Shown here in pieces: positions 24,950-62,654 of a stretch of 64,000 nt of DNA; the first letter of the stretch is position 1; each line of letters begins with the position of its first letter. This stretch comes from Veillonellales bacterium. Lineage in GTDB: Bacteria; Bacillota; Negativicutes; JAAYSF01. A program made the position numbers and the translations under genes. The stretch is from contig JBDKTO010000117.1 in NCBI GenBank assembly GCA_039680175.1, positions 47,278-111,277 of the forward strand. Direction: 5' to 3'. The notes under the pieces were generated by a model. The model had not been told where the DNA came from. It saw only the letters and a program-made list of their open reading frames with translations, and made no database searches.

Positions 24950-25909
24950 ATGCAAAAGCAGAAGATTCGTAAGGCGATTATTCCCGCGGCAGGGCTTGGC
25001 ACGAGGTTTCTTCCGGCGACGAAGGCTCAGCCGAAGGAAATGCTGCCGATTGTGGATAAGCCGGCCATTCAGTTTATTATTGAGGAAGCCATTCAGTCGG
25101 GAATTGAGGAGATCTTGATTATTACCGGCCGGAACAAGCGGGCGATTGAGGACCATTTCGACCGGGCCGTGGAACTGGAGCTGACTCTGAAGCAACAGGG
25201 AAAATATGATTTGCTGGGATTGGTGCAGGAGATAGCGGATGTGACCATTCACTATATCCGGCAGAAAGAAGCGAAAGGGCTGGGACATGCTGTGCTTTGC
25301 GCCAGGCAGTTCGTGGGGGATGAGCCTTTTGCCGTACTGCTGGGCGATGATATTGTGGATGCCAAGGTGCCTTGCCTGCGGCAGCTGATGGATGTGTATG
25401 AGGACTGCGGCGGCAGTGTGCTGGGAGTACAGGAGGTTCCTCAGGACAGGGTCAGCAGTTATGGAATTGTGAAGCCCAGACCGGTAAAGGAGAATCTGTG
25501 GCAGGCGGAGGATCTGGTGGAAAAACCGGCGGTGGAGGAAGCTCCTTCCCGGCTGGCGGTTCTGGGCCGCTATATTATTGAGCCGGAGATTTTTCCCCTG
25601 CTGGAAGATACGCCGCCGGGACGGGGCGGGGAGATCCAGTTGACGGACGCACTGAGGCGGCTGGCGGCGGATAGACCGGTGTATGCTTTTTGTTTTGACG
25701 GACGAAGGTATGATATTGGCGATAAGCAGGGGTATCTGGAGGCGACGGTGGAGTATGCGCTGAAGCGGCCGGAGCTCAGGGACAAGTTTTTGCGGTATTT
25801 GCTGAAGACGGTGGGTACGCTGGCCAGTCCGGAGGCGGCAGCGGCGGCGACGGAAGACGGACCGGGGACGCCACCCCCCGTCGCTTCGCGCCACCCCCAC
25901 TCTGTATAA
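24950..25909 (+). CDS. galU: UTP--glucose-1-phosphate uridylyltransferase
   Basis: KAIIPAAGLGTRFLPATKAQPKEMLPIVDKP is the canonical GalU N-terminus. The start is placed at the internal Met with RBS gaaaggtg. The ORF reads through into a downstream repeat element, so the true C-terminus may be shorter. Confidence 0.85.
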   Translation: MQKQKIRKAIIPAAGLGTRFLPATKAQPKEMLPIVDKPAIQFIIEEAIQSGIEEILIITGRNKRAIEDHFDRAVELELTLKQQGKYDLLGLVQEIADVTIHYIRQKEAKGLGHAVLCARQFVGDEPFAVLLGDDIVDAKVPCLRQLMDVYEDCGGSVLGVQEVPQDRVSSYGIVKPRPVKENLWQAEDLVEKPAVEEAPSRLAVLGRYIIEPEIFPLLEDTPPGRGGEIQLTDALRRLAADRPVYAFCFDGRRYDIGDKQGYLEATVEYALKRPELRDKFLRYLLKTVGTLASPEAAAAATEDGPGTPPPVASRHPHSV

Positions 25910-26023
25910 TTCGATTAGCGACACAGAGTATCATGAAAGAGCATCGGGGGAGGCTCCAGAGATCGCCGCGTCGCTATCGCTCCTCGCGATGACAGAATTC
26001 AGTGCTATGCACCAAGTACGACG

Positions 26024-26066
26024 TACCAAGTACCATGAGCTATGAGCTATGAGCTATGAGCTATGC
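26024..26066. repeat. Heptanucleotide tandem repeat (ATGAGCT)n
   Basis: ccatgagctatgagctatgagctatgagctatgcgccatgcgcc. Related arrays lie at ~42949-43008, ~47173-47245 and ~52579-52632. Confidence 0.7.
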
Positions 26067-26120
26067 GCCATGCGCCGAATCTCCGCGTTATCCGAGAGAC
26101 TAATCCATAGGAGGCTGACG

Positions 26121-28502: not shown

Positions 28503-28544
28503 AAAAGCATTTTGCGGGATTGTTTGCGGGAGGTCAGGCGCTGA

Positions 28545-30029: not shown

Positions 30030-30051
30030 ACAGAAAAGTGTGGAGGATGTT

Positions 30052-31254
30052 ATGGCGCAGGACAATCTGGTTTCGCTGCAGGCTGATCCGGAAGATATCA
30101 GAGAAGCAACGACGTTACTATTGGAAAATTATTGGATTCTCCGGGAGGAACAGCCGGAGCAGTATCAGCTGATCCGCCGTTATGAACCGGCGTTAAGACG
30201 GTATTTTTTTGAAAAATGCGGCTGGCGGCTGATTCAAAATCCTCAGTTCTACAAGCTGGAAAAAATTCCGGATCAGCCCCAGGCCTGGATGGGAATTGAA
30301 AGTTTTCAGCAACCCAGGGATTATTCGCTGCTGTGCTGCCTGCTGGCTTTTTTGGAAGAAAAGGCGGTAGAGGAGCAATTTTTGCTCAGTGAGCTGTGTG
30401 AAAGCATTTTGGCTTTCTATCCTCACGAGGCGGGGGACGGCGGCAGGCTGAACTGGGAAAATTATGAGCATCGCCGGTCGCTGGTCCGGGTCCTTGCCTT
30501 TGCGGCGGAAGCCGGACTGCTGCGGCTGGTGGATGGAGACAGCGAGCAGTTTGCGATGCGCCGGGAGGGGGAAGCCTTGTATGAGGTGACTCTGTTGGCG
30601 CGTTATTTTTTACGTTCCTATCCGAAAGATTTGCAGCAGTACGACAGCATGCAATCGCTGCAGGCCGCCGAGCTTTCCGACGACGAGGCTGCTACGGGGA
30701 CGGGGCGCCGGAACCGGATTTACCGGCAGCTGCTGCTGACGGCGGCGTATAACGGCGACGACGCCCGGCCGGAAGATTTCGCCTATTTACGGAATATGCA
30801 GCGGCGGCTGCGGGAGGAACTGGAGAATACGACCGGTCTGCAGTTTGAACTGTACAAGGATTGCGCTATGCTGACAAGCCCGGAACGGACCGGCTGGGGC
30901 CGGCAGATTTTTCCGGCTTATCGCAGCGGGATTCATGCCGTGGTTTTGCATTTTGCGGCACTGTACCGCCGGCAGCGGCAGAAAAAAGAGGCGCCGGACA
31001 GTCTGAGCGCCGTGGAATTCGAGGGTTTGGCGGCGGAATGCCGCCGGGAGTATGGGTCGGGCTGGACGAAGGAATACCGGGAGCTGCCGCTGGGCAGACT
31101 GGCTGCCACTGTGCTGGCGGAGCTGGTGGAGTGGAATATGGCGGTAACCGACAGGGAAACCGGACTGATTCAATTCCGACCGGCGCTGGGACGGCTGCAG
31201 GGGCAGTATCCGACGGATTATCAGGGCAAGAGCCGGGAGGGGAAAAGCAGATGA
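30052..31254 (+). CDS. jetB: Wadjet JetB-like / MksE-like subunit (DUF4194 / TIGR02678-type)
   Basis: ~400 aa. A strong RBS (ggagg) lies 7 nt upstream of the ATG at 30052. Its stop TGA overlaps the jetC ATG (ATGA at 31251-31254). Confidence 0.55.
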   Translation: MAQDNLVSLQADPEDIREATTLLLENYWILREEQPEQYQLIRRYEPALRRYFFEKCGWRLIQNPQFYKLEKIPDQPQAWMGIESFQQPRDYSLLCCLLAFLEEKAVEEQFLLSELCESILAFYPHEAGDGGRLNWENYEHRRSLVRVLAFAAEAGLLRLVDGDSEQFAMRREGEALYEVTLLARYFLRSYPKDLQQYDSMQSLQAAELSDDEAATGTGRRNRIYRQLLLTAAYNGDDARPEDFAYLRNMQRRLREELENTTGLQFELYKDCAMLTSPERTGWGRQIFPAYRSGIHAVVLHFAALYRRQRQKKEAPDSLSAVEFEGLAAECRREYGSGWTKEYRELPLGRLAATVLAELVEWNMAVTDRETGLIQFRPALGRLQGQYPTDYQGKSREGKSR

Positions 31255-34200
31255 GGAACAAATGGCAGATGAACCGGGCCGGTGTGCTGAATTACTGGTA
31301 TTATGATGAGGAAGAATTTGATTTTGCCGATGGACGGCTGCTGCTGCGAGGCAGCAACGGATCGGGAAAATCGGTGACGATGCAAAGCTTGATTACGGTG
31401 CTGCTTGACGGGGTCAAGAGTCCGGACCGTTTGGACAGCTTTGGTTCCCGTTCCCGGCGGATGGAGGATTATCTGCTGGGGGAAAAGGAAATCGTCAACC
31501 GGGATGAGCGTACCGGCTATCTGTATCTGGAGTACAAGCGGCAGCAGACGGATCAATATGTGACCACCGGTATCGGTCTTCACGCCCGGCGCGGCGGCAC
31601 CGTTGATTTTTGGGGCTTTGTCATTACCGACAACCGGCGTATCGGCCGGGATTTCTGGCTGTATAAGCGGGAGATGAATCCGGAAGACGGCTCCCCCCAG
31701 CGCATCCCTTTTACCCGGGCCGAGCTGGAACGGGCCGTCGGCTCCGGCGGACAGGTGGTGCGGTCGCAGAAGGACTATATGGAACTGGTGAACCGGCATG
31801 TATTCGGGTTCGAGAATTTGGAGCAGTATCAGGAACTGATGAAGCTTCTCATTCAGCTGCGCAGTCCGAAATTGTCTAAGGATTTTAAGCCCAGTGTTAT
31901 TTATGAAATTTTAAATGAATCGCTGCCGTCTTTGTCGGATGAAGAATTGCGTCCGTTGTCGGATACGATTGAAAGCATGGAGCGGATCAAGCTTCAGATC
32001 GAGCAAATGGAACGGGATCGCCAGGCTTTGAACCGGTTGTGCCGCCAGTATGACGGATATAACGAGTATGTGCTGGCGGAAAAGGCGGACTTGGCGCAAA
32101 AAGCCGAACGGCGGCACAGCCGGCTGGAACGGGAGGGCAAAGAACTGGCGGAAGGACTAGCGGAAGCAGCCGGACTGCTGACGGAACAGCGGCGGAGTCA
32201 GGCGGAGCTGGAACGGGAGCTGGCAGTTCTGGAAGTGGAAAAGGCGGAACTGGAGAAGCATGATGTATTTCAGGTGGAGCAGCAAAAGCAGGCCAAGGAA
32301 CAGCAGCTGATCCAGCTGGAGGGTGAGCAGAAAAACCGGGAAGAGAAATTGGCGGAGCGGCAAAAGGGAGAGCGGGAAGAACGGCAGCTGGTTTTGGAAT
32401 ATGAAGGACAGCGGGAAACCTTCCGGCAGGGAATGGAAGAACAGCTGGAAGACATGGCTGCTTTGGCGGCGGAAGCTGATTTCAGCGATCATGAGTTGTT
32501 GGCGCGGGATTTTGCCGTTCAGCCGGCAAAGGTTTCTTTCGGGGGATGGCGGCAAAATTCCCAATCCCATGTAGCAAGGCTGGAAGCGGGGCTGCAGGTG
32601 CTGCGTCGGCAGCGGGAAGCCCGGCTGCGCCGCGACCGGATTGAACAGGAACTGGGGGAGGAACGGCGACTGCTCGACGAATACCGGGGCGAACATCGTA
32701 AGCTGGAGCAGCGGTTTCTGGAGGTCCGGGAGCAGCTGTTGGCCGATGTGTACAGCTGGCAGCAGCGTTATGACGCTGATTTGCCGCTGGAGAAGGAAGA
32801 ACTGCGGCAGATTGCCCAGGGCATTCAGGGATTGTATGAAGGACGGCTGTGGAGCGATGTGCAGGCGCCGCTGGATACAGCTTACGGGCGGCAGGTCGAC
32901 CGGCTGAACCAGGAACTGGGTTTAAACGGAGCCCGGCTGCGCCAGCTGGAGGAACAGGAACAGGGTCTGCAGCAGGAACTGCAATCCTGGCGGGATCAGC
33001 GGGATCCGGAGCCGGAGCGGCTGCCGGATGTGGAGGCGACCCGCCGGCTGCTGACGGAAAAACAGGTCCCTTTCGTGCCTTTTTATGCGGCTGTCGAATT
33101 TGATTCCAGGGTGACGCCGGCCATGCGGGAGCGTCTGGAAGCGGCACTGACCGATATGGGGCTGCTGGATGCTTTGATTGTTCCGGCCGGCCGGCTGCCG
33201 GAACTTTCCGGACTGGAGGCTTACGGTTCGGTGTTTTATCCGGATCCCCAGATTATGACTGCCACGCTGGCGGATTATCTGCAGCCGACTCCGCCGGTAG
33301 ACGGGAAGGTGTCGGCGGCGGATATTGATGAGGTTCTGCGGAGCATTTTGATTGACGACTGCCGGCCGGGGACAGGGCCGGCGGCGAATGGCAGCAGCCA
33401 GCCGGTGCTTTCGGCTGACAGCGGCGATTACCGGTTGAACCTCGTCAGCGGTCGGGCGTCCCGCCGCCAGTCGGCGGTCTATATCGGCAGGCAGGCCCGT
33501 CAGGAATACCGGCGCCGGCAGATGGCTGAGCTGGAGGAAAAGCTACGGGAAACGGCGCTGGCTGTGGAAGAGGTTCATGGGAAAATGCAGCTGCTGCGAA
33601 GCCGTCAGGAGAAAAATCGCCAGGCCAGGGAAGACTTTCCGGCAGAAACGGAAATCCGGGAGATTTTTCATAACAAGCAGGCGGTGACCGCGAATATTGT
33701 CCGGCAGGAACAGCGGGTCAATGTAGTGGACGGGCGGCTGCGGGAAGTTACCGGTGAAGTGCTGTCTTTGCGGCAGGAGTGGCAGAAGGTCAGCGACGGG
33801 CTGAAGCTGCCGGCGGATGAATCCGGTTATGAAGGCGCGGTGTCGGTGATGCGGCAGTATCAGCAGAGTCTCCATGAGCTGGAATTGAGCCGGCAGGGAT
33901 TTTTGAACAGCAGCGATAATGCCCGGCAATGCGGCCGACGGCTGGCGGATTTGTCCGCCGAGGTGGACGGATTGAAAGGCGAACTGCTGGTGCAGGAAGG
34001 CCGGCTGCAGACGATCCGGCTGGAAATTGACCGGCTGGAAAGCCGGATGCGGGAGATGGGAGCGGAAGAACTGCGGGAGCGTGTTCGGTTTGTGGCCAAA
34101 CGGCTGAAGGAAATACCGGCAGCGGTCAAAGAACTGATTGCCGCTGCTGCCAAACTGGAAGGCGATATTCGCCTCCAGGAAAGCCGCAAGCTGGAAGTGG

Positions 34201-35480
34201 CGGCTAAGACTCAGTTTGTCGGACAGCTGATTGTCTGCTGGCAGCAGCTGCTGAAGCAGGAATTGCAGCTGGGTTTGGTTTATCCGCCGGACGAGACGAC
34301 TGACAGCGGCGGGATCCTTCGCGACAAGGGCGGCTGGCTGAAGCCTGACAAACCGGACCGCATCAGCCTGACGGATCGGATCAGCAAAAGCTTTGCGGTG
34401 GAAAATAATGTGCTGATGGAATACCGGATGCAGCTGGAGCCGCTGACTGTTGAAATTAAGGCTGTACCGGTTTTGCCGGAAAATAGGGAGGAAGACGACG
34501 GACTGGCCGCCGATCTGGAAAAGCTGCGGGAGAAATCGCATCGTCTGGTGATTACTCTGGATTACGACGGACGGCGGCAGAATCCTTATCAACTGCAGCA
34601 GGTTTTGAACCGGCAAATTGAGGAGCAAAAGGCGATTTTGTCCGATAAGGACAAGGAATTGTATGAAGAAGTGATTATGAACAGTATCGGCCGGATTATC
34701 AGCCGCCGCATCCGTTCGGCTCAGCAATGGGTAGAGAAAATGAACAAACTGATGCAGCAGCGGGACAATTCCAGCGGATTGAAGTTTAAACTGGAGTGGA
34801 AAGCGCGGACCGCGGACCGGGATGAGGAACTGGATACGCAGGATTTGGTGCGGCTGCTGCATGCCGATCCGGCGGTTCTAAAGGAAGAGGATTTAGCGAA
34901 AATGGTGAGCCACTTTCAGTCCCGCATCCAGCAGGCCAAGCAGGCCAGCGAAGGAGCAGCCGGGGAAGCCGAGGCCACTTTTCAGCAGGCCGTCCGGCAG
35001 CTGCTGGATTATCGCCTCTGGTTCCAATTTAAGCTGCAGTATACCCAGGTAAATTTGAACTGGCGGGAACTGAGCGATAAGGTATTTTTCAAGTTCAGCG
35101 GCGGTGAAAAAGCCATGGCCATGTATATTCCCCTATTTTCAGCCGCTTATTCCCGTTATCAGGAGGCCGGTCCGGACGCGCCGTATATTATTACTTTGGA
35201 TGAAGCCTTTGCCGGGGTGGATGAAAACAATATCCGGGATACTTTTGCCTTAGTGGAGCAGTTAGGGTTTAATTATATTATGAATTCCCAGGCGTTGTGG
35301 GGAGATTATGATGTGGTGCCGTCTTTGGCGGTTTGCGAGCTGATTCGCCCCCAGAATGCGCCTTATGTTACGGTGGTGCGGTATCACTGGAACGGGTCGG
35401 TGCGGACACTGCAGGCAGCCGGCGAGGCGGAACAGGCTGCTTCTTCGGTGGTGGCCGCCGCCCGGCAGGGGGAACAATGA
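31251..35480 (+). CDS. jetC: Wadjet JetC-like / MksB-like SMC-family ATPase
   Basis: 1409 aa from the ATG at 31251. The ORF-track start at 30861 lies inside jetB and is rejected. Walker A GSNGSGKS (aa 34-41). Two long E/Q/R/L-rich coiled-coil arms. C-terminal ABC signature FSGGEKAMAMYIPLF and Walker B YIITLDEAFAGVDE. Confidence 0.8.
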   Translation: MRNKWQMNRAGVLNYWYYDEEEFDFADGRLLLRGSNGSGKSVTMQSLITVLLDGVKSPDRLDSFGSRSRRMEDYLLGEKEIVNRDERTGYLYLEYKRQQTDQYVTTGIGLHARRGGTVDFWGFVITDNRRIGRDFWLYKREMNPEDGSPQRIPFTRAELERAVGSGGQVVRSQKDYMELVNRHVFGFENLEQYQELMKLLIQLRSPKLSKDFKPSVIYEILNESLPSLSDEELRPLSDTIESMERIKLQIEQMERDRQALNRLCRQYDGYNEYVLAEKADLAQKAERRHSRLEREGKELAEGLAEAAGLLTEQRRSQAELERELAVLEVEKAELEKHDVFQVEQQKQAKEQQLIQLEGEQKNREEKLAERQKGEREERQLVLEYEGQRETFRQGMEEQLEDMAALAAEADFSDHELLARDFAVQPAKVSFGGWRQNSQSHVARLEAGLQVLRRQREARLRRDRIEQELGEERRLLDEYRGEHRKLEQRFLEVREQLLADVYSWQQRYDADLPLEKEELRQIAQGIQGLYEGRLWSDVQAPLDTAYGRQVDRLNQELGLNGARLRQLEEQEQGLQQELQSWRDQRDPEPERLPDVEATRRLLTEKQVPFVPFYAAVEFDSRVTPAMRERLEAALTDMGLLDALIVPAGRLPELSGLEAYGSVFYPDPQIMTATLADYLQPTPPVDGKVSAADIDEVLRSILIDDCRPGTGPAANGSSQPVLSADSGDYRLNLVSGRASRRQSAVYIGRQARQEYRRRQMAELEEKLRETALAVEEVHGKMQLLRSRQEKNRQAREDFPAETEIREIFHNKQAVTANIVRQEQRVNVVDGRLREVTGEVLSLRQEWQKVSDGLKLPADESGYEGAVSVMRQYQQSLHELELSRQGFLNSSDNARQCGRRLADLSAEVDGLKGELLVQEGRLQTIRLEIDRLESRMREMGAEELRERVRFVAKRLKEIPAAVKELIAAAAKLEGDIRLQESRKLEVAAKTQFVGQLIVCWQQLLKQELQLGLVYPPDETTDSGGILRDKGGWLKPDKPDRISLTDRISKSFAVENNVLMEYRMQLEPLTVEIKAVPVLPENREEDDGLAADLEKLREKSHRLVITLDYDGRRQNPYQLQQVLNRQIEEQKAILSDKDKELYEEVIMNSIGRIISRRIRSAQQWVEKMNKLMQQRDNSSGLKFKLEWKARTADRDEELDTQDLVRLLHADPAVLKEEDLAKMVSHFQSRIQQAKQASEGAAGEAEATFQQAVRQLLDYRLWFQFKLQYTQVNLNWRELSDKVFFKFSGGEKAMAMYIPLFSAAYSRYQEAGPDAPYIITLDEAFAGVDENNIRDTFALVEQLGFNYIMNSQALWGDYDVVPSLAVCELIRPQNAPYVTVVRYHWNGSVRTLQAAGEAEQAASSVVAAARQGEQ

Positions 35481-36853
35481 GCGGAAAGAAGCCGCAGGAC
35501 CTACTGCTGGCCGAGGCGGCGGACTACTTTCATTCCCATTCCGGCCTGGAGCGCCTCCTGGCCGGAATGACGGAAAAGTACCGTACGCTGGGCCGGCTGG
35601 CGGGAGTCGTGGTATTGACCGGAGTCAGCAGGGAAGAAAAGACAGCTTTGGAGTCTTTTTTTCGCCGGGTGCTGCCGGCAGGCAGTCTGCGGATTTCCGC
35701 CGAAAAGTTTAAAACCGCCTTGGCGGAAACCCGGTTCGGCGGTTTGGACCCCTTGGCGGTACTGGCGGCCTGGCAGGGAGAACCCCTTGTCAGCCGCCGG
35801 GAGAAGCAGGAGCAGGCAGAGAGCCGGCGGCGCCGGGCGTTGACAGCATTGTTGGCTAAGTTTTCTCAGCCTTTTTGCCAGGCTTGGCTGAAAGGGGCGC
35901 TGGACCGGGAAGAAGGTACAAGACGGGTGCAGACGGCCTTTCGCCGCGATCCCCGTCGGTTTATGGAGAATATGTCAGTGGCGCTGCGGGCTATGGCCGG
36001 GTTGCCGGAAGAATATCGGCGGCTGCCGGTATTTTCCCGGGAAATATGCGGCAATCCCCACGGCCTGGATATTGACGGTGAGGCCGGGAAACTGCTGTTG
36101 GAAGGACTGGCATATATCCGCCGGTCAAGGCAGGAAGAGTGCGACAGCTCCTTTTGCACCGGCGACGGCGGCGAATCGCCGGAGAGACTGTCGGCTATTG
36201 AAGTAATTACGGAACTGTTGTATCATTTTCGGCTGCTGAGGGATGATTTGCTGAATTTTGTGACTTGCATCGGTTTGGCCGCTGATGACCGGCGGGGAGA
36301 GATCGTCTACTGGCGCCGGGCGGTTCAGGCCGGTGCGCCGCTGAATCTGCCCCTGCGGGAGGTAGTGCGGGCGGTAAAAATTTATCCGGCGGCAGCCGGG
36401 CGAGAGAACGATGCTGGTTATGAGGTGCTGGTGGTGGAAAATTCCGGAGTATTTTCGGCCCTGCTGGATGAAAAAGGCGGGGACGGCAGCTGGGGGGGAA
36501 AACCGCTGGTTTGTCTCCACGGTCAGCCGAAGCTGGCTTCCTGGGCTCTGCTGGATCGTCTTGCCGGCAGCGGTGCGCTGCTGCGCTATGCCGGCGATTT
36601 TGATCCGGAAGGGCTGCAGATTGCCCAGAAATTACTGCGGCGGTATGCCGGCCGGGCCGGTCTTTGGCGCATGACGGCGGCGGATTACCGGGAGGCCGGT
36701 CCGTCTGAACCCATCGGCCGGGGCCGGCTGAACAAATTACGGTCTGTTGTCCTGCCGGAACTGGCGCCGCTGTGTCAGCTGATGGAGCAGACGGGCCTGG
36801 CGGCTTATCAGGAGGGATTGCTGGCAAAGCTGGCCGCGGATATAGAACTTTAA
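35477..36853 (+). CDS. jetD: Wadjet JetD-like / MksG-like protein with a C-terminal Toprim-like domain (DUF3323+DUF2220-type)
   Basis: 458 aa. ATGA overlap with the jetC stop. The C-terminal region has Toprim-like acidic motifs (LVVENSGVF ... AGDFDPEGLQIA). Confidence 0.65.
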   Translation: MSGKKPQDLLLAEAADYFHSHSGLERLLAGMTEKYRTLGRLAGVVVLTGVSREEKTALESFFRRVLPAGSLRISAEKFKTALAETRFGGLDPLAVLAAWQGEPLVSRREKQEQAESRRRRALTALLAKFSQPFCQAWLKGALDREEGTRRVQTAFRRDPRRFMENMSVALRAMAGLPEEYRRLPVFSREICGNPHGLDIDGEAGKLLLEGLAYIRRSRQEECDSSFCTGDGGESPERLSAIEVITELLYHFRLLRDDLLNFVTCIGLAADDRRGEIVYWRRAVQAGAPLNLPLREVVRAVKIYPAAAGRENDAGYEVLVVENSGVFSALLDEKGGDGSWGGKPLVCLHGQPKLASWALLDRLAGSGALLRYAGDFDPEGLQIAQKLLRRYAGRAGLWRMTAADYREAGPSEPIGRGRLNKLRSVVLPELAPLCQLMEQTGLAAYQEGLLAKLAADIEL

Positions 36854-38386: not shown

Positions 38387-38407
38387 GACGAAAAGGCGGA
38401 CAAGGAG

Positions 38408-38562
38408 ACACACCCCGCCCTGCGGACGATTTGCCTGTTCTGTATAATTCGGCTAACGAAACCAAAAGATGGTTTCGAGTCTTATCTATTTTTCTAATGG
38501 GGAATAGGCGGTCTTAAAATCCCCTCTAAAAAGAGGGGTGGCGCGTTAGCGACGGGGTGTGT
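38408..38562 (+). repeat. MITE-like composite dispersed repeat, full-length copy with ACACACCCCGCC...GGCGGGGTGTGT termini
   Basis: Contains internal hairpins (cgaaaccaaaagatggtttcg; cccctctaaaaagagggg). Same family as 14245-14345. Confidence 0.6.
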
Positions 38563-38755
38563 ACAGCGTGAGTTCTGCGATTTTTTCTACATTCCGAGCA
38601 TAATAATTCGCTTTGCATAACTCGACTTAGCGGGAGCATATAAAATATAAATTTGAGTGTACCAAAAAAATCCTGTCAGCCAGTGACAGGATTTTTACAT
38701 AAGATGTAGAAAAAGTTACTCTACGGTAGAAATAAATGACAATGGAGTTATTGTT

Positions 38756-41316: not shown

Positions 41317-41644
41317 GGGAGAGGACGGCGCGGGGATCGAAGGACTTTGCGCGGTCCACCGGAGTGTCATTGCGAGCGGCAGCGAAGCAATCTCCTTGCT
41401 GCTAATGCTAAAATTTTTTGTCAGCGAAACCGTCCCCGGTGATATTTGGTAAAATCCCCTCTAGAAAGATAAGTGAGACTCGAAACCACGCCTTTTGGTT
41501 TCGTCAGCCGAACTTATGCAAAGCTAGAAAAGATGCGAAACTCTGCTTTTTGAGTTTCGCTAGTCGAATTATGCAATGAATTCGTAACATCTAGCTATAT
41601 TATCGCATATAGTATCCTATCCCAGGCAAAGGGGGTAGGATATT

Positions 41645-42803: not shown

Positions 42804-43035
42804 AATATTTGGCAGTCTCCTTTCAAAGTTGTAAATGCAAGAACAATGCAGAACATATGTTTGATATATTATCTATATAGTAACAAAATTTCCTGCTAAT
42901 GGCAATAGAAAAATGAGAACGGATTTGGCGATGGGCAGAAAACCAAGGCGCATGGCTCATGGCTCATGGCTCATAGCGCATGGCTTATAGCGCATGGCTC
43001 ATAGCCAAGTATTAGCACAGAATACCCTATTACTC

Positions 43036-43124
43036 TGTCATCGCGAGGCGTCAGCCGCGGCGATCTCAAAGGAGGAAAGAGGCGATAGAGGCCGGGAGAT
43101 TGCTTCGCTGCCGCTCGCAATTAC
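43036..43124. repeat. ~90-bp dispersed element with terminal inverted repeats TGTCATYGCGAG / CTCGCAATKACA. This is the long version. Other copies lie at 46783-46877 and 59504-59593.
   Basis: tgtcatcgcgaggcgtcagccgcggcgatctcaaa...gagattgcttcgctgccgctcgcaattaca. Short half-copies (gagattgcttcgctg[cg]gctcgcaatgacag) lie at ~11203-11236, ~11527-11560, ~15478-15513, ~15808-15843, ~18822-18867, ~25959-26003, ~41356-41395 and ~45300-45345. Confidence 0.65.
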
Positions 43125-43215
43125 AAATCCAAGTCCTCAGTCCCCAGTCCCCAGTGCCAGGTGCCAAGTTCCAAGTCCCAAGTCCCCAGTTCCAAGTTCC
43201 AAGTGCCAGTCTCTG
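43125..43215. repeat. Heptanucleotide tandem repeat array, consensus CCMRGTN (STRR-like)
   Basis: ccaagtc ctcagtc cccagtc cccagtg ccaggtg ccaagtt ccaagtc ccaagtc cccagtt ccaagtt ccaagtg: 11-12 contiguous units of period 7. Confidence 0.75.
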
Positions 43216-43291
43216 CGCTTCGATTTGCGGATGATTTTGCCGGAAGGTATAATATTGTCAGAATGTTGATGGGAAATATCGAGGTGAAAAT

Positions 43292-45184
43292 ATGGGAGTT
43301 TTACGGATTGACGGCTTGACGAAAGCTTTTGGGATAGAAACATTATTTTCCAATGTGAGTTTTGAACTTCGGCGGGGCGATAAAGTGGGACTGATCGGCG
43401 GCAATGGCGCTGGCAAGACGACGCTGCTGAAGTGCTTGCTGGGAATGGAGCGGACGGACGGCGGTCAGGTGGCTATGCCGGCAGGGGAGACCATCGGTTA
43501 TGTGGAGCAGGATGCCGGGCTGGGCCGGGGGACCCTGTATGAGGAACTTTGCAGTGCTTATCAGGATGTAATCAATTGGCAGAAACAAATGCGGCAGCTG
43601 GAAAAGACAATTGCCGCCGAGCAGGATGAAACGGTGCTGGCCGAACTGATGAAAGAATACGGCAGGCTGGTGGAAAATTTTGAAAGGGGCGGCGGGTACG
43701 AATATGAGAATAGCGTACGCCGGGTCGCTTTTGGGCTGGGCTTTACCGATGAGGACTTCAGCCGGGATTTAGACACGTTTTCCGGCGGACAAAAGACGCG
43801 GATTTGTTTGGCCAGGGCATTGATACGCCAACCGGATTTTTTATTTCTCGATGAGCCGACGAATCATCTGGATATCAGCATGGTGGAATGGCTGGAGGAT
43901 TTTCTTGCCGGTTATCCGGGGGGAGTCTTGATTATTTCTCATGACCGTTATTTTTTGGACAAGGTAGCCGGACGGATACTGGAGCTGGAAGGCGGCACAG
44001 TGACTTGCTACGCCGGCAACTATAGCGATTATTTGGGGCAGAAGGCCGAGCGGCTGGCAGCCATGGAAAACGCTTATGAGAAGCAGCAGGCTTTTATTGC
44101 AAAAACCGAGGCTTTTGTTGACCGCTACCGGGCCGGGGTGAAATCCAAGCAGGCCAGGGGGCGGGAGAAACGGCTGGGGCGGATGGAACGGATCGTGCTG
44201 CCGGCTGCCGGTGCCCGGTTTGATTATTTTGCCTTTAATCCGCCGGGGGAATGTGCCGAGCGGGTGGCCGAGCTGGAGGAGGTTTCGGCCGCTTATGGTC
44301 AGCGGATTATTTTTGAACATCTTTCCCTGTTGATCCGGAAGGGCGACGGGGTGGCTCTCATCGGACCGAACGGAGCCGGCAAGACGACGCTGCTGAAACT
44401 GCTGACCGGAGATTTGCCGCCGACAGCCGGTCGGGTAAAACTGGGCAGCCGGGTGAAGGTAGGTTACTTTTCTCAGGAGCATGAAGGCCTGAATCCCGGC
44501 AATCGCATCCTGGATGAACTGAATCAGGAATTCGGCTTAAGCGAGGAGCGATCCCGGCATTATTTAGGGGCCTTTTTGTTCCGGGGGGATGATGTGCTCA
44601 AGTTGATCGGCGATTTAAGCGGCGGGGAAAAAGCCCGCCTGGCTTTGCTTAAGCTGATGCTGACCGGAGCAAATTTTATCATTCTGGATGAACCGACCAA
44701 TCATTTGGACATTCCCGCCAAGGAAGCGGTGGAAGAAGCCATTATGAGTTTCCCCGGCACTTTTTTAACCGTGTCTCATGACCGGTATTTTTTGGACAAG
44801 GTGGCCAACTGCGTGCTGGAGCTTTCAGCGGGAAAACTGGTGGAATACACCGGCAACTACAGCTACTATCGGGAGAAAAAGCTGGCAGAGGGAAAAGCGG
44901 CAGCTGCCGTGAAAGAGGCCGCACCCCACACCGCGGCCGGAGGAAAGAAGTCTCAGCAGCAGCGGCAGCCTCGCAGGCAGGATACGGAGCGGCGGCAGAA
45001 AAAGCTGGAGGGAGAAATCGCCTGCTTTGAGGCGGAGGTCGCCGAACTGGAACGGCGGCTCAATGATCCGGCCAGCCACACAGATCCCTCCGCCAGCTGG
45101 GAACTGGCAGAGGAGTACCGGCAGCGCCAGGCCGAGCTGTCGGAGAAGTATGATGAGTGGATGGCGCTGGGAGAAGAGGAGTGA
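43292..45184 (+). CDS. ABC-F family ATPase (two tandem ABC domains, no TM domain; ribosome-associated type)
   Basis: Two Walker A motifs (GGNGAGKTT, GPNGAGKTT). Two signatures (FSGGQKTRI, LSGGEKARL). Two Walker B (FLFLDEPTNHLD, FIILDEPTNHLD). C-terminal charged coiled-coil tail. 630 aa. Confidence 0.85.
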   Translation: MGVLRIDGLTKAFGIETLFSNVSFELRRGDKVGLIGGNGAGKTTLLKCLLGMERTDGGQVAMPAGETIGYVEQDAGLGRGTLYEELCSAYQDVINWQKQMRQLEKTIAAEQDETVLAELMKEYGRLVENFERGGGYEYENSVRRVAFGLGFTDEDFSRDLDTFSGGQKTRICLARALIRQPDFLFLDEPTNHLDISMVEWLEDFLAGYPGGVLIISHDRYFLDKVAGRILELEGGTVTCYAGNYSDYLGQKAERLAAMENAYEKQQAFIAKTEAFVDRYRAGVKSKQARGREKRLGRMERIVLPAAGARFDYFAFNPPGECAERVAELEEVSAAYGQRIIFEHLSLLIRKGDGVALIGPNGAGKTTLLKLLTGDLPPTAGRVKLGSRVKVGYFSQEHEGLNPGNRILDELNQEFGLSEERSRHYLGAFLFRGDDVLKLIGDLSGGEKARLALLKLMLTGANFIILDEPTNHLDIPAKEAVEEAIMSFPGTFLTVSHDRYFLDKVANCVLELSAGKLVEYTGNYSYYREKKLAEGKAAAAVKEAAPHTAAGGKKSQQQRQPRRQDTERRQKKLEGEIACFEAEVAELERRLNDPASHTDPSASWELAEEYRQRQAELSEKYDEWMALGEEE

Positions 45185-45220
45185 CGGGGCGCATAGCAGG
45201 GGGATAGGGACGAAAGAATG

Positions 45221-45281
45221 GGACTTGGGACTTGGGACTTGGAATTCAGTTCCCATTACTAAGTTCCAAGTTCCGCTTTTT
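45221..45281 (+). terminator. Probable intrinsic terminator built from inverted heptamer repeats (gggacttgggacttgg ... ccaagttccaagttcc + TTTTT)
   Basis: Imperfect inverted repeat of the CCAAGTN units followed by a T-run, directly after the ABC-F stop. Confidence 0.45.
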
Positions 45282-45659
45282 CTGTCCCTAGCTTCTCCTG
45301 CTTGTCAGCGCGAGGAGCGATAGCGACGCGGCGATCTGTGGAGCCTCCCAGATGCTCTTTCACGCTACTCTATGTAATTCTTTCATGCTCGTTGCGAGAG
45401 ATAGCGAAGTAAGCTAACGCTTTTTTGTCAATCATTACCTTGATGTCACCCACGGCTATCATCGCCTCGCGATGACAACCCATCCTGCAGCCAGCAGCTC
45501 ACAGTCCGCAGCTTATGGCTCACGGCCAATAACCAGTAGTTTTAGCCGACTAACGTGATGAGTCACGCTGAGCCGGCTTTTGTTTTTCCTTTTTTGGCAT
45601 GGTACAGTACAACCAGCGCGAATATCGAGGGACCGGTTCCTCACAACAGGTGAGGGAAA

Positions 45660-46724: not shown

Positions 46725-46934
46725 AGGGGCTGTGAGCCTAGGGCGATGAGCCATGGGCTATTGGTTAGGCGCTTTCTCAGAGTTGTCATTTGCGAGGCGT
46801 CAGCCGCGGCGATCTCAAAACGGCAAGCGGCAGCCTGGAACCGGGAGATTGCTTCGCTGCGGCTCGCAATGACAGAATTTAGAGCCGAATGCCTTAAGCC
46901 AACAGCCAATCGCCCCCAAAAGGAGGTAACCGCT

Positions 46935-47078: not shown

Positions 47079-47254
47079 CGAAGAAAGCATCAGAGCCTGT
47101 GTCAGGTTCTGATGCTTTTCTGTTTAGGACTATAATATTTTATTCCTTTCGCCAAGTACTAACTATCAACTGCCAAGTGCCATGAGCTATGAGCTATGAG
47201 CTATGAGCTATGAGCTATGAGCTATGAGCCATGAGCCATGAGCCAAAAAACGCG

Positions 47255-47515: not shown

Positions 47516-47849
47516 GTTGGGTTATCCTTTCTTGAGGTAAATGGAAAACTTTATTACTATTCGACAATCTTTGCATTTTTCCTGTTGGCACGGGCGGGAA
47601 GGGAGACAGACGGACACACCCCGCCCTTCGTGCCATTCCCCTCTTTTTAGAGGGGAATGGCACGACTTGAATCCTGGATTCCCGGAAATACATAACGAGG
47701 TGGCTTCAACCCCTTGTCATTGCTAAAAACTGGCATCGTTATGTATTTTTTACTCATAACGATGTACTTGCTATATCAAAATACCGGAAAGTCTTGACTT
47801 TGCCGAACATTTTAGAAAACTTCGATATGAGTAAGCGGGAATCCAGGTT

Positions 47850-47948
47850 GAATCCCCTCTAGAAAGATAGATGAGACTCGAAACCGCGCCTTTCGGTTTC
47901 GTTAGTCGAATTATACAGAGTGGGGGTGGCGCGTAGCGACGGGGTGTG
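47850..47948 (-). repeat. MITE-like composite repeat (inverted orientation relative to the 14245 copy)
   Basis: cccctctagaaagatagatgagactcgaaaccgcgcctttcggtttcgttagtcgaattatacagagtgggggtggcgcgtagcgacggggtgtgt. Confidence 0.55.
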
Positions 47949-48049
47949 TAAATCTCTGCCCGCTTTGCAGGATTTACGTCTGCCTTTTACGAATAATGGA
48001 ATGATAACAAGCGCCGCTCTTGGTGGTGGTTGTAAAGGAGTGGCAGTGA

Positions 48050-50206: not shown

Positions 50207-50212
50207 GGAAAG

Positions 50213-50460
50213 GGCGGGGGACGTAACACACCCCGCCCTACGGGAACCCCCACTCTGTATAATTCGACTTACGAAACCGAAAGGCGCGGGTTCGAGTCTC
50301 ATCTATCTTTCTAGAGGGGACTACACCCCCTCTACACTGTATAGTTCGACTGACGAAACCGAAGTGCGTAATTTGGAGTTTTATTTATCTTTCTAAGGGG
50401 AATAGGCAGGGGGATAAATCCCCTCTAAAAAGAGGGGTGGCGCGAAGCGACGGGGTGTGT
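50213..50460 (+). repeat. Tandem/nested copies of the MITE-like composite repeat
   Basis: Two consecutive ..cactctgtataattcgact.acgaaacc...tctatctttcta..gggga units, then the cccctctaaaaagaggggtggcgcgaagcgacggggtgtgt end. Confidence 0.55.
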
Positions 50461-50541
50461 AAAATGTCTATCTACTATAATCGTGTGCCGGTACGTGGTT
50501 GTGCGTGAGAGCGCGGGAACGAACAAGAAGGGGGGCTCGCG

Positions 50542-51297: not shown

Positions 51298-51792
51298 TTG
51301 CGGATGACGGATGAGAACGTAAAACTTATTTTAGAAAAACTGGATTTTATTGCTGCCGATGTATCCGGATTGAAGACCGACGTATTGGAACTGAAAATGG
51401 ATGTATCCGGATTGAAGAATGACGTATCGGAGCTGAAAACGGATGTATCCGGATTGAAGAGTGATGTATCGGAGCTGAAAACGGATGTATCCGGATTGAA
51501 GAGTGACGTATCGGAGCTGAAAACGGACGTATCCGGATTAAAGACTGATGTATCCGGATTGAAAGGAGATATTTTAGGCCTCAAAGAGGATGTCGTGAGG
51601 CTGGATGGAAAAATTGATCATTTTGTCGCCGAACAGCAAAAAGATGTTGTGGTTTTGCTGAATATTATGAACACAAAACTGGATAAACAGTCCGAAATAT
51701 TAAAGATACTTTCCACCCGTTCCATAGAACAGGAAGCGGATATTGCTCTTTTAAAAAAGTTTAAAGAAAAGCTAAAAACAGAATGCGCTTAG
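51298..51792 (+). CDS. Tandem-heptad-repeat protein (DVSGLKT/DVSELKT x ~11). Hypothetical.
   Basis: 164 aa. Nucleotides 51355-51590 are near-perfect 21/42-nt tandem repeats. The opposite-strand ORF 51249..51584 is a shadow of the same repeats. The C-terminal LDGKIDHF..LKK tail resembles that of ORF 53118..53516. Confidence 0.5.
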   Translation: MRMTDENVKLILEKLDFIAADVSGLKTDVLELKMDVSGLKNDVSELKTDVSGLKSDVSELKTDVSGLKSDVSELKTDVSGLKTDVSGLKGDILGLKEDVVRLDGKIDHFVAEQQKDVVVLLNIMNTKLDKQSEILKILSTRSIEQEADIALLKKFKEKLKTECA

Positions 51793-52433: not shown

Positions 52434-52578
52434 ACGCCTTTCGTCATAAAATCACGTATTATTTAAGGTTAGCCATAAAACAACATAATCCTGCCGGGAG
52501 ATTAAAAAAATATATATTTTCCCTAAAAGACAACAAAAATTCTGGCAATTAGTCGGACAATATTAGTATAATAGAGAT

Positions 52579-52632
52579 GGGCTGTGGGCTGTGGGCTGTG
52601 GGCTGTGGGCCAAGTGCCAAGTGCCAATCGCC
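52579..52632. repeat. Heptanucleotide tandem repeats (GGGCTGT)x4 followed by (GCCAAGT)x2-3
   Basis: gggctgtgggctgtgggctgtgggctgtgggccaagtgccaagtgccaatcgcc, directly upstream of the yvyF-like gene. Confidence 0.7.
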
Positions 52633-53117: not shown

Positions 53118-53516
53118 GTGGAAGAATTGCTAAAACAGCTCATTGCAGGGCAAAAGCAAATTTTAGGGCGGATGGACCACATTGAAAAAGAGCAAATTGA
53201 TGTAAAACAGGCAGTCGTTCGTCTTGAAAAAGAGCAAACCGATACAAAACAGGCAGTCGTTCGTATTGAGAAAGAGCAGAGCGATACAAAACAGGCAATG
53301 GCCCGTATGGAAAAAGAGCAAGCTGATATAAAACAGGCAGTCGTTCGCATGGAAAATCAGCATGGTGAAAAATTAGCGGCGCTTTATGATGCCCGCGAAG
53401 TCCAATTGGACGTCAATGAGCGAATTTTTGACAGCCTAAACCGGATTGAAGGAAAAATAGACCGGATTTCTCTAAAGGTATCATCCCACGAAACCTTGCT
53501 CAAAAAAGTAAAATAA
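53118..53516 (+). CDS. Tandem-repeat coiled-coil protein (EKEQxDxKQAVVR x4). Hypothetical.
   Basis: 132 aa with 39-nt tandem repeats. GTG start. The opposite-strand ORFs (53063..53350, 53163..53363) are repeat shadows. Confidence 0.45.
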   Translation: MEELLKQLIAGQKQILGRMDHIEKEQIDVKQAVVRLEKEQTDTKQAVVRIEKEQSDTKQAMARMEKEQADIKQAVVRMENQHGEKLAALYDAREVQLDVNERIFDSLNRIEGKIDRISLKVSSHETLLKKVK

Positions 53517-57801: not shown

Positions 57802-57985
57802 CGGGCGGGACGGAGAGCGGAACTTAGCACTTGGGACTTGGAATGAGGGGAGAGGGACGGGGACGGAGTGCGGAATTTGGGACTGGGAACGTTAAGAGAT
57901 TTGGAATTGGAAGCTGGATTTTAAGAAGCTTGGCTTTCCCGGAAAGAACTTTCCCATCATTAAAGAGAAGAGGGAATATGTGTTT

Positions 57986-58357
57986 ATGGCTGAGTTACAT
58001 GGATTCAGGGACCTTCGTGTGTGGCAGGATGCTATGAAATTAGCAGTCGATGTGGTCAAACTTGCAGACAAACTACCAAGGCAGGAACTGCATGGGCTAA
58101 GCTTGCAAATCCGTCGAAGCGCGGTTTCGGTTCCATCCAACATTGCCGAGGGGTGGGGCAGAAAGAGGGATAAAGAATTTTGTTATTTTATTGATATTGC
58201 TTATGGAAGTCTGTGTGAAGTAGAGACACAATTAGAATTAGCTTTGCGTTGTTATGGGATGGAAATTAATGATATAATAATCCAGTGTAATGGTATACAA
58301 AAACAGCTTCGGGCTTTGCGAAAAAAGATTGAGGAACGAGTACAGGGAAAGGGGTAA
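57986..58357 (+). CDS. Four-helix-bundle protein (rRNA-intervening-sequence-type, TIGR02436-like)
   Basis: MAELHGFRDLRVWQDAMKLAVDV...SNIAEGWGRKRDKEFCYFIDIAYGSLCEVETQLELAL is typical of this widely inserted family. Flanked on both sides by inverted heptamer-repeat arrays. Confidence 0.7.
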   Translation: MAELHGFRDLRVWQDAMKLAVDVVKLADKLPRQELHGLSLQIRRSAVSVPSNIAEGWGRKRDKEFCYFIDIAYGSLCEVETQLELALRCYGMEINDIIIQCNGIQKQLRALRKKIEERVQGKG

Positions 58358-58713
58358 TGAGAAGTTGGCACTTGGGACCTGAAAATTGGAAATTGGTAAG
58401 GAGAGACGGTGCGAAGAGTTGGAACTTGGCACCTGGCAAGAAGAAACGGGTATTAAGGACTGGGGACTGCACTTAGCATTTGGCACCTGGGACTTGGTAA
58501 GAATTCTAAGTGCGAAATACTAAGCACCGGCCGGGCCACTCAGTGTGTTCTTTCGTTTTTCGTGTTTCCCCAAGTTCCAAGTCCTAAGTACCAAATTCCG
58601 CTTTTTCCCCGTTCCACTCTTTCCTTCGTTCCCCTTCCAAGTCCCCATTACCAAGTTCCAAGTCCCGTTTTCCCCCAAGTCCCCATTACCAATCCCGAAT
58701 AGGAGGCCTACCC

Positions 58714-59173: not shown

Positions 59174-59410
59174 ATGCTGGCACTTACTCGCAAGACCGGT
59201 GAACGGATTGTCGTCGGCGATAACGTGGTTATTACCATTTTCGATATCAAAGGCGATAGCGTCCGCTTGTCCATTGAAGCTCCCAAAGAAGTGAAAGTCT
59301 ACCGCGGCGAACTCTTCGACGCCATCGCCGCCGAGAATAAGCAGGCCGCCGTCCTGAATGACCTGGAAGGACTGGCGGGGATTAAGAGACGGGATGAGAG
59401 CGGGACTTAG
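59174..59410 (+). CDS. csrA: Carbon storage regulator CsrA
   Basis: MLALTRKTGERIVVGDNVVITIFDIKGDSVRLSIEAPKEVKVYRGEL. 78 aa. Confidence 0.9.
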   Translation: MLALTRKTGERIVVGDNVVITIFDIKGDSVRLSIEAPKEVKVYRGELFDAIAAENKQAAVLNDLEGLAGIKRRDESGT

Positions 59411-59437
59411 TATTGGGGACTGGGAAATTGGAAATTA

Positions 59438-59492
59438 GGACTTGGGACTTGGAATTCAGTTTCCATTACCAAGTTCCAAGTCCCGCTTTTTT
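59438..59492 (+). terminator. Probable intrinsic terminator after csrA, formed by inverted heptamer repeats (ggacttgggacttgg ... ccaagttccaagtcc + TTTTTT)
   Basis: 15-nt arms with one mismatch, a 16-nt loop and a T-run. Confidence 0.5.
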
Positions 59493-59771
59493 CAGTCTCC
59501 TGCTTGTCATCGCGAGGCGTAAGCCGCGGCGATCTCAAAGCCGGAGAGGCGTCAGGAAGAGCGAGATTGCTTCGCTGCCGCTCGCAATGACAGAATATTC
59601 ATTCAAGTCCCCACTGCCAAGTCCCAAGAGCTCTTTACCGCCTTATTCCAAGTGCCAATTACCAAGTCCCATCTTCCCGTTCCCCCCCCAAGTTCCAAGT
59701 CCCCATTACCAAGTTCCGTTTCCCTCGTCCCCCCATTTCCAAGTGCCAAAAAAAAAATCCCCGTTCCCTCT

Positions 59772-62427: not shown

Positions 62428-62654
62428 TTACAGGTACTGAGCGGGTACTTGGTACTTGGCACCTGGAACTTGGGGGAGGGCGGGTACTGGAGTGGTAATG
62501 GGCACTTGGCACTTGGAGCTTGGCAGGGGAACGGGCGTATGTGCCGTTGGTGCGTGATGATGCGCTCCGTTCTTCCCCAAGTCCCTATTTCTAAGTTCCA
62601 AGTTCCCATTACCAAGTGCCAACTACCAAAACTACAACTAGGAGAGTGTTTCCT

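Follow-up and report, generated by a model that had tools for sequence, protein, structure and literature searches.

The 64,000-nucleotide (nt) stretch of contig JBDKTO010000117.1 of a Veillonellales bacterium that is analyzed here (the window) carries arrays of heptanucleotide tandem repeats in its intergenic DNA, and complementary arrays bracket an inserted gene for a four-helix-bundle protein of the PF05635 family. With moderate confidence, the period-7 arrays can be regarded as the two arms of palindromic insertion elements of the 23S rRNA intervening sequence (IVS) class, located here in intergenic and intra-operon DNA. A full element would consist of a G-rich array (the 5' arm), a PF05635 open reading frame (ORF), and a complementary C-rich array (the 3' arm). 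The window would contain one such element, at 57815-58700, between DUF6470 and fliW, with the following parts:

57815..57930, + strand: degenerate G-type arrays with GNACTTG units interleaved with GGGGAGAGGGACGG-type purine runs, 14 nt past the DUF6470 stop codon; the 5' arm of the cassette (phased-motif scan, minimum free energy [MFE] fold).

57986..58357, + strand: PF05635/TIGR02436 four-helix-bundle gene, 123 amino acids (Pfam, NCBIfam, PDB match).

58363..58497, + strand: inner G-type arrays, downstream of the PF05635 gene (phased-motif scan, fold).

58560..58700, + strand: C-type arrays (CCAAGTN), the 3' arm of the cassette, ending 13 nt before the fliW ATG; homology with the relative L005 resumes at 58701 (Tandem Repeats Finder [TRF], scan, folds).

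The protein encoded at 57986-58357 matches Pfam PF05635 (3.2e-32) and TIGR02436 (3.9e-32), the “23S rRNA intervening sequence protein” or four-helix-bundle families, and its only PDB match is 2GSC, the Xanthomonas protein XCC0516 (8e-19). The cassette site lies between flagellar genes, not in helix 9, 25, or 45 of 23S rRNA, and a search of the whole window with Rfam at gathering thresholds returns no matches and no rRNA. In both the window and L005 (GCA_039683075.1), the cassette has the layout G arrays, ORF, G arrays, C arrays; the MFE fold of 57802-58713 pairs 57803-57887 with 58560-58700 around the ORF. The relatives L006 and L007 lack the PF05635 gene together with the arrays and have a gap of 42 nt between DUF6470 and fliW. 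The L005 protein at the same site is only 66% identical to that of the window, while the neighboring genes are ~96% identical at the nucleotide level, which implies cassette replacement. Thus, the suggestion of the sequence-only reading that arrays flank an inserted four-helix-bundle gene holds, with complementary arrays on its two sides. The inverted pair that it placed directly after yviE (DUF6470) is not found there: these arrays are G-strand only and pair only with C-strand arrays on the far side of the PF05635 gene. No reverse transcriptase, template repeat, or variable repeat adjoins the PF05635 gene of the window.

The order of G-rich array, PF05635 gene, and complementary C-rich array recurs across phyla. 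Close homologues from other Negativicutes lie within operons (lptA-lptB; hldE-heptosyltransferase), each inside an inverted period-7 pair with a unit of its own: GGCTCAA.../...TGAGCC in Lucifera, AAGTRGN/CCACTTN in L012, and AAGTATG/CATACTT in L013, where the closing stem folds with a z score of -4.7. A tblastn search of 72,556 plasmids finds PF05635 in 22 records, 21 of them cyanobacterial. At nine of the 12 plasmid loci inspected, a G-rich array precedes the gene and the complementary array follows it, the period being 7 or 8 and the units including GACAGGT, GGGAGTR, GGGAACA, GGGTGTA, GGGAAAA, and AAGGCAG; the period is 8 or irregular at the Gemmatirosa, Picosynechococcus, and Leptolyngbya loci, and one locus, beside a transposase, has the downstream array only. 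Host sites on plasmids include cas6-cas4, cas10-cmr3, nrd genes, and conjugation genes.

Two larger comparisons give the same picture. Among 18 curated PF05635 loci from Negativicutes, cyanobacterial plasmids, and Gemmatimonadota, 13 exceed the 95th percentile of 118 control ORFs in inverted-flank complementarity (Mann-Whitney p=9e-5). An unselected set of 80 metagenomic loci, found by a conserved peptide, includes 64 with usable flanks, and 44 of these have inverted flanks at z of at least 4. Lag 7 scores best in 48 of the upstream and 40 of the downstream flanks, and lag 8 in 10 and 11, respectively. Strong periodicity is found in 28/64 upstream flanks versus 15/635 control windows from the same contigs (~18-fold; odds ratio, 32; Fisher p=9e-22). 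In these metagenomic loci, the upstream arm has more G than C and the downstream arm more C than G, with almost no exceptions.

The array units differ at almost every PF05635 locus, and the co-variation between proteins and heptamer units is trivially positive (rho of 0.07), driven by likely orthologues. PF05635 proteins that are 70 to 81% identical have arrays without common 7-mers; for now, this rejects a recognition code that would link protein to unit, and the role of the arrays appears to be structural rather than sequence specific. This bears on the idea that the arrays are a DNA- or RNA-binding platform for a repeat-reading protein, either the PF05635 pentamer or CsrA acting through the GGA of GGGACTT. 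The co-occurrence of PF05635 genes with arrays fits such a platform, and work on cyanobacteria postulates an unidentified heptamer-binding partner (bioRxiv 10.1101/2022.06.06.494920). With no sequence-specific code visible, this alternative is quite improbable. As for CsrA, neither ATGAGCT nor GCKCATR units contain GGA, and arrays are present genome-wide, beyond the csrA regulon and the csrA neighborhood, which rules out a CsrA decoy made of GGA motifs.

The only experimentally dissected case of this architecture is the Coxiella rRNA IVS. In Coxiella burnetii, the S23p ORF is preceded by two to three copies of GACAGAT, their number varying among strains, the IVS has a 28-bp terminal stem, and the 5' cut by RNase III falls at the first heptamer; RNase III excision is known for the rRNA IVSs of Coxiella, Salmonella, and Leptospira (PMC4990558). 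The window element resembles the S23p/PF05635-containing IVSs of C. burnetii and Leptospira in its ORF family, its complementary stem-forming termini, the heptamers upstream of the ORF, and changes in copy number between strains. It differs from them in its location between protein-coding genes of a flagellar operon and in its arms, which are much longer and degenerate, with runs of purines or pyrimidines between the units; in addition, many ORF-less copies are present alongside it.

If the window element is of this class, its transcribed arms would pair into a long stem, which, as the Coxiella IVS suggests, probably either serves as a substrate for RNase III or acts as a structural insulator. 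Cutting or insulation of this stem would let the insert sit inside operons. ORF-less versions, which may derive from or spread with the cassettes, would comprise G-array/short loop/C-array hairpins, such as those downstream of ABC-F, csrA, and flagellin, as well as promoter-adjacent single arrays; the copies that end in a T-run could also act as intrinsic terminators. The arrays would evolve by slipped-strand gain or loss of whole units and by wholesale replacement with other unit families; period, G-then-C polarity, and arm complementarity would be conserved and the unit sequence would be free.

Several observations weigh against the assignment to the IVS class. The IVSs for which cleavage by RNase III has been demonstrated are all in the rRNA of other organisms. 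About 10 of the 12 array sites in the window are not beside the PF05635 gene, and in a Nostoc plasmid segment 7 of 9 arrays lie away from such a gene, as ORF-less pairs or singles. The ATGAGCT array at 47182 (9 units) and the arrays at 26011 have no complementary partner and no significant fold (z, -0.9 and -0.7, respectively), and the arrays around the Pseudanabaena gene (L022) are direct, not inverted. A tblastn search of 50,697 phage records finds no PF05635 match and hence no evidence for phage carriage, and no transposase, target-site duplication, or other mobility signature was identified. The asymmetry of G·U versus A·C mismatches between arms, meant to separate RNA-level from DNA-level pairing, amounts to 37 versus 26 (p=0.2) and does not support RNA-level selection on pairing at any stringency.

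The arrays themselves are real. TRF reports period-7 arrays at 26011-26065, 42947-43005, 43129-43208, 45219-45242, 47182-47243, 52578-52627, 58570-58663, 59688-59717, and 62444-62629. The array at 43129-43208 has the consensus CCAAGTC, with 11.4 copies and 82% matches, and that at 47182-47243 has 8.9 copies of ATGAGCT with 98% matches. A scan of lags 3 to 14, requiring at least 24 of 28 self-matches, finds 116 positions at lag 7, 61 at lag 14, and none elsewhere, i.e., 7 is the sole enriched tandem period in the window. Phased matches to CCAAGT, ACTTGG, ATGAGC, and GCTCAT number 105, against 20 ± 7 in shuffles; this motif scan also recovers degenerate sites missed by TRF, at 57822-57887, 58363-58497, and 59405-59481. 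Based on a gene map made from ORFs and their Pfam and NCBIfam matches, 673 of the 675 lag-7 array bases in the region 24911-63899 are intergenic, where intergenic DNA makes up 14%. The first 25 kb are essentially array-free, with only 32 array bases. The period-7 intergenic arrays seen by the sequence-only reading are thus confirmed. With period 7 and no unique spacers, a CRISPR-like array is ruled out. The array sites outside the cassette and the elements next to them are as follows:

26011..26075, + strand: C-type array upstream of galE, with CCAAGTA units followed by 4.4 copies of ATGAGCT and 2 of ATGCGCC (TRF, lag-7 scan, epimerase Pfam match).

42947..43005, + strand: GCKCATR array (GGCTCAT/AGCGCAT, 8 units), the left part of the 353-nt stretch 42928-43280 (TRF, blastn against L026).

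43036..43125, + strand: palindromic element of ~90 nt, TGTCATCGCGAGG...CTCGCAATTACA, between two arrays (fold of -34.8 kcal/mol; repeat families D16/D17).

43129..43208, + strand: CCAAGTN array of 11.4 units, ending just upstream of the ABC-F promoter (TRF; L028 indel; absent in L026).

45220..45281, + strand: inverted heptamer pair, consisting of a (GGGACTT)x3 arm, an AATTCAG loop, an AAGTTCC-type arm, and GCTTTTT, 36 nt past the ABC-F stop codon; terminator-like (fold, sequence).

45303..45478, + strand: longer sequence related to the palindromic element, TGTCAGCGCGAGG...CCTCGCGATGACA; a degenerate period-7 stretch continues to ~45535, all inside the insertion 45178-45543 (sequence; blastn gap against L026).

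45541..45590, + strand: ancestral ABC-F terminator, AGCCGACTAACG...GAGCCGGCTTTTGTTTTT, conserved with L026 (L026 comparison, sequence).

46726..46919, + strand: degenerate array, palindromic element (46783-46875), and degenerate array, upstream of yvrJ (fold of -45.7 kcal/mol; z, -3.8).

47152..47243, + strand: CCAAGT units followed by 9 ATGAGCY units, between the convergent yvrJ and TSCPD genes; no hairpin partner (TRF; fold z, -0.9).

52578..52632, + strand: 4.7 copies of TGGGCTG running into 2.7 copies of GCCAAGT, upstream of yvyF (TRF; YvyF NCBIfam match).

59405..59492, + strand: inverted heptamer pair overlapping the csrA stop codon, with an AATTCAG loop and then GCTTTTTT; terminator-like (fold, sequence).

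59504..59593, + strand: third full copy of the ~90-nt palindromic element (fold).

59600..59760, + strand: C-type arrays reaching the conserved flagellin promoter region; L005 homology resumes at 59766 (TRF, scan, alignment).

62444..62629, + strand: G-type (62444-62525) and C-type (62577-62629) arrays that make up a long inverted pair, beyond the terminator that belongs to the flagellin gene (TRF, folds).

Two main unit families, GNACTTG/CCAAGTN and GCKCATR/ATGAGCY, are each found in both orientations, and a third unit forms a short GGGCTGT run. The arrays merge gradually into one another, as in GCCAAGT GCCATGA GCTATGA. Relative to genes of the plus strand, arrays that come after a stop codon are of the G type and those ahead of the next start codon are of the C type, in every co-directional intergenic region. 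Convergent inverted pairs fill the intergenic regions between ABC-F and the sigma gene, the PF05635 gene and fliW, csrA and flagellin, and flagellin and fliB.

Comparison with relatives shows that the arrays are recent, inserted, and unstable. L026 and L027 are syntenic with the window from galE to comFC at 82 to 88% nucleotide identity and have no arrays, except for a 4-unit array (GGGCTGTGAGCTATGAGCTAAAAGCCA) that L026 has by itself at the site of 46726-46919. In blastn alignments, the 353 nt at 42928-43280 (array, palindromic element, and the array at 43129-43208) replace 56 nt of L026, and 45178-45543 is a 366-nt insertion between the ABC-F stop codon and an ordinary terminator conserved in both. 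At 43129-43208, L028, a contig from a sister sequencing run whose ABC-F gene is 99% identical, has 5 units versus 11 in the window; the alignment shows a clean 42-nt (6 x 7) gap in otherwise near-identical sequence, with the proviso that L028 is a short-read contig and that array lengths from such contigs need care. L005 is 94 to 97% identical to the window in DUF6470, fliW-csrA, and fliB at the nucleotide level, and all four intergenic regions between the two are unalignable. L005 has arrays in these regions too, again in G-then-C order, with GCKCATR units instead of GNACTTG and a small CCAAGT remnant next to the flagellin promoter; four adjacent intergenic regions have switched unit family together. 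The more distant relatives L001 to L004, L006, and L007 have no arrays, and a FliW search of genome contigs finds only distant relatives (38 to 64%) that are array-free. The copy-number polymorphism for which the sequence-only reading proposed to look is therefore present, and the arrays, far from being the invariant and isolated low-complexity DNA that it named as the contrary outcome, vary among L028, L005, and L026.

Two sequences of this organism assembled from the short reads of sister runs, L028 (2,050 nt) and L008 (5,048 nt), stop at or close to arrays and the palindromic element, so repeats of this kind fragment assemblies. In practical terms, the arrays interrupt assembly from short reads, and the hypervariable intergenic sites that they mark could be used for strain typing.

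The same comparisons bring in the possibility that the arrays are passive heptanucleotide microsatellites, which grow by slippage in tolerant intergenic DNA, with period 7 favored by the polymerase, and in which PF05635 genes land or survive, there being no function and no element identity. The clean indel of six whole units, the unconstrained unit sequence, the many partnerless arrays, and the 4-unit array of L026 where the window has longer arrays with an inserted palindromic element would all be expected from slippage, which is also the hypothesis offered for the over-representation of heptamer simple sequence repeats (SSRs) in many bacteria, as far as that work is summarized in PMC4692102. 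We nevertheless consider this explanation rather unlikely. Slippage alone would not be expected to produce constant G-5'/C-3' polarity and arm complementarity, as in the metagenomic locus L096, where a variant unit of one arm is mirrored at the matching position of the other, and only 2.4% of the control windows from the same contigs are periodic. Further, in array-poor replicons the arrays are found almost only at the PF05635 gene. In Lucifera, the sole strong lag-7 segment in 20 kb is at this gene. In 50 kb of the plasmid pANA02 of Anabaena sp. 90, all three period-7 arrays flank the four-helix-bundle gene and none is at the avd gene of the plasmid's diversity-generating retroelement (DGR). 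In Geminocystis, 2 of 4 arrays flank the PF05635 gene, and in the Nostoc plasmid segment, which is array-rich like the window, 2 of 9 do. Avd, the DGR accessory protein and a relative of the four-helix-bundle proteins, binds nucleic acid, which would fit the binding-platform idea. It shares a superfamily with PF05635 (PMC10053308), from whose loci the pANA02 avd gene differs in having no heptamer arrays.

Several ORF-less pairs fold stably. The hairpin after ABC-F has a folding energy of -57.5 kcal/mol (z, -6.26) and that after csrA -41.6 kcal/mol (z, -5.2), each followed by a T-run; both carry the loop AATTCAG and are thus copies of one another. The pair at 62425-62650 folds at -96.8 kcal/mol (z, -3.9). 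The sequence-only reading took such inverted pairs for intrinsic terminators, recruited and maintained by the genes for termination, and the hairpins with T-runs directly past ABC-F and csrA do have that form. A stable stem-loop with a T-run past a stop codon is, however, found at only two sites, 45220-45281 and 59405-59492, and neither is native: the ABC-F hairpin is absent from L026 and the csrA hairpin from L005. Since the ancestral ABC-F terminator survives downstream, the array there is an insertion and not the gene's own terminator. The flagellin gene likewise has a conventional terminator of its own (~62386-62424), which precedes the arrays at 62444-62629. A simple terminator scan, which skips the long array hairpins, finds 30 sites versus 22 ± 6, with no clear enrichment. 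Finally, arrays are also promoter-proximal or operon-internal (DUF6470-fliW, lptA-lptB, cas6-cas4), where termination would be harmful. An origin of the pairs as terminators is therefore clearly unlikely; judging from sequence, the two T-run hairpins likely act as terminators as a side effect of insertion.

The arrays could also be phase-variation (contingency) or G-quadruplex repeats that tune adjacent promoters. The copy-number polymorphism and the position of several arrays upstream of genes would be compatible with this, and the GGGAATC repeats of Xanthomonas have been shown to form G-quadruplexes (PMC4692102). In the window, the arrays stop short, on the upstream side, of the ABC-F promoter's -35 box and of the conserved sigma-28-type promoter region of flagellin; no array lies in a coding region or in a -35/-10 spacer, and the 42-nt L028 indel leaves the ABC-F promoter core intact. 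This speaks against the proposal of the sequence-only reading that unit-number changes alter promoter spacing. The longest run of G3-tract units is (GGGACTT)x3 at 45220, short of the four consecutive units that a G-quadruplex takes. Most units are GNACTTG, with one or two Gs, or ATGAGCT, and the lack of G3 tracts in most of them (GCACTTG, GAACTTG, GTACTTG, ATGAGCT, and GCGCATA) rules out the G-quadruplex idea. Promoter tuning as a whole is highly improbable.

Cyanobacterial arrays of heptanucleotide repeats have been on record since about 1990, and others were later found in Xanthomonas and Beggiatoaceae; we know of no accepted origin, partner, or function for them. The arrays of the window belong to this known kind, of which the Negativicute is a new instance. 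They share period 7, intergenic location, and the presence of several unit families per genome with the short tandemly repeated repetitive (STRR) sequences of Calothrix, Nostoc, and Anabaena, including the STRR1 type, GGGGA(T/C)T, and on cyanobacterial plasmids period-7 arrays of this general kind bracket PF05635 genes. They differ in host and in their main units, GNACTTG/CCAAGTN and GCKCATR/ATGAGCY. The STRR likeness noted from the sequence thus stands for the kind of repeat, and the resemblance to the STRR1 unit CCCCA(A/G)T is superficial, as units vary freely by locus: few units are CCCCAGT, with only 3 of 11 at 43129-43208, where the consensus is CCAAGTC.

The GGGAATC repeats of Xanthomonas are likewise intergenic heptamer arrays, with 70 to 75 convergent inverted pairs whose position and type (single or paired) are kept between close species while length and sequence vary (Rehm et al. 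2015, PMC4692102). They are uniform and G-quadruplex competent, in contrast to the heterogeneous and mostly not competent units of the window. According to the supplement of that paper, one GGGAATC array starts 6 nt after accB and overlaps the start of XCC0516, the PF05635 gene whose product is the crystallized family member (PMC4692102). The TAACTGA repeats of Beggiatoaceae, Cyanobacteria, and Bacteroidetes (MacGregor 2015, PMC4679880) are also mostly intergenic, near start codons, and patchily spread across phyla, but have one fixed unit, are inverted in 1 of 170 sets, and have no reported link to PF05635. PF05635 genes are mentioned in neither PMC4692102 nor PMC4679880, and searches of open-access papers and preprints find no statement that links STRR sequences to PF05635. 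The cross-phylum cassette architecture appears to be stated here for the first time; an earlier description is possible, given the literature covered.

A broader reading, which we offer tentatively and consider doubtful, is that PF05635 genes with inverted heptamer arms are pan-bacterial selfish cassettes, the same entity as the ORF-bearing 23S rRNA IVSs, and that the arrays of cyanobacteria (STRR), Xanthomonas, and the window Negativicute are ORF-less derivatives of such cassettes or were seeded by them. In that case, the PF05635 protein would supply the trans-acting partner that the repeats have so far lacked, with a part, for example, in array formation or spread or in stem protection or processing. 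The recurring architecture ties together three literatures, those on STRR and other heptamer SSRs, on rRNA intervening sequences, and on the “four helix bundle protein” family of unknown function, and makes the long-unexplained STRR question experimentally approachable.

Two observations on individual cassettes may be added. On cyanobacterial plasmids, several lie in CRISPR-Cas operons (pANA02, loci L014/L109; L021; L022), in two genera in the cas6-cas4 interval of a type I-D system and elsewhere between the type III-B genes cas10 and cmr3, which points either to a site of repeated insertion or to a functional connection with cas operons. In L056 (metagenome Ga0102812_10005295), a perfect (GGTACTT)x4 array precedes a PF05635 gene whose product is 46% identical to that of the window; the same unit is found at 62444-62460 of the window, which may reflect convergence or a shared array lineage.

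The ~90-nt palindromic element (TGTCATCGCGAGGCG...GAGATTGCTTCGCTGCCGCTCGCAATGACA) is present in three full copies, at 43036-43125, 46783-46875, and 59504-59593, each embedded between arrays; half copies are found at 15466-15536 and 15797-15867 and the longer relative at 45303-45478. The element has no Rfam match, and among the other loci fetched it is found only at the end of the L028 contig. In a comparison with mobile palindromes of the miniature inverted-repeat transposable element (MITE) or repetitive extragenic palindromic (REP) type, the element shows at least three copies and the two ORF-less hairpins share the AATTCAG loop and arm layout; neither a target-site duplication nor a cognate transposase was identified. 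Elhai et al. reportedly described, in 2008, small dispersed repeats (21 to 27 nt) nested in heptamer arrays of Nostoc. Both are embedded in arrays; the window element is longer, unrelated in sequence, and from another phylum.

A second dispersed intergenic repeat family, of the form ...ACACACCCCGCCCT.CGG...TCTGTATAATTCGACT..CGAAAC..GGTTCGAGTCTCATCTATCTTTCTAGAGGGGA..., is found at 14230-14347, 25872-25930, 38390-38563, 41455-41524, 47596-47658, 47853-47950, 50208-50323, and 50334-50462, often directly past stop codons, and has many copies in L005.

The host is a Negativicute whose closest records are “Veillonellales bacterium” metagenome-assembled genomes, followed by Lucifera, Sporomusa, and their allies; a lookup of the exact ABC-F protein sequence returned no record. 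Pfam and NCBIfam matches identify ABC-F, sigma/YvrJ, FlgM, FlgN, FlgK, FlgL, DUF6470 (yviE), FliW, CsrA, flagellin, and YvyF, in agreement with the non-cyanobacterial flagellar gene content recognized from the sequence. Positions 1-25000 form a polysaccharide or O-antigen-type island of low GC content (29 to 45%) that encodes glycosyltransferases, GDP-mannose enzymes, Wzi, a PDDEXK_2 transposase, and a DUF4143 ATPase. It contains internal repeats of 120 to 300 nt (9615-9914/14352-14651 and 11679-11973/15051-15345) and promoter-like repeats at 11289, 15572, and 15914. Relative to the syntenic L026, a complete type II Wadjet system (jetA2-jetB2-jetC2-jetD2) at 28545-36853 forms an 8.3-kb insertion (28498-36836) that separates the PGM and PGI genes precisely.

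Two small coiled-coil genes adjoining the flagellar late genes, at 51298-51792 (LPP-like) and 53118-53516, contain in-frame 42-nt (14-residue) tandem repeats at 51358-51563 and 53181-53356. The flagellin encoded at 59913-62345 is unusually long (810 amino acids) and 85% identical to that of L005, versus 94 to 97% for the neighbors, and is followed by the flagellin lysine-N-methylase FliB (62616-63899). Between csrA and flagellin, L005 has extra genes that are missing in the window, namely, an ORF for a coiled-coil protein and a gene for a ParE-type toxin with a small ORF beside it.

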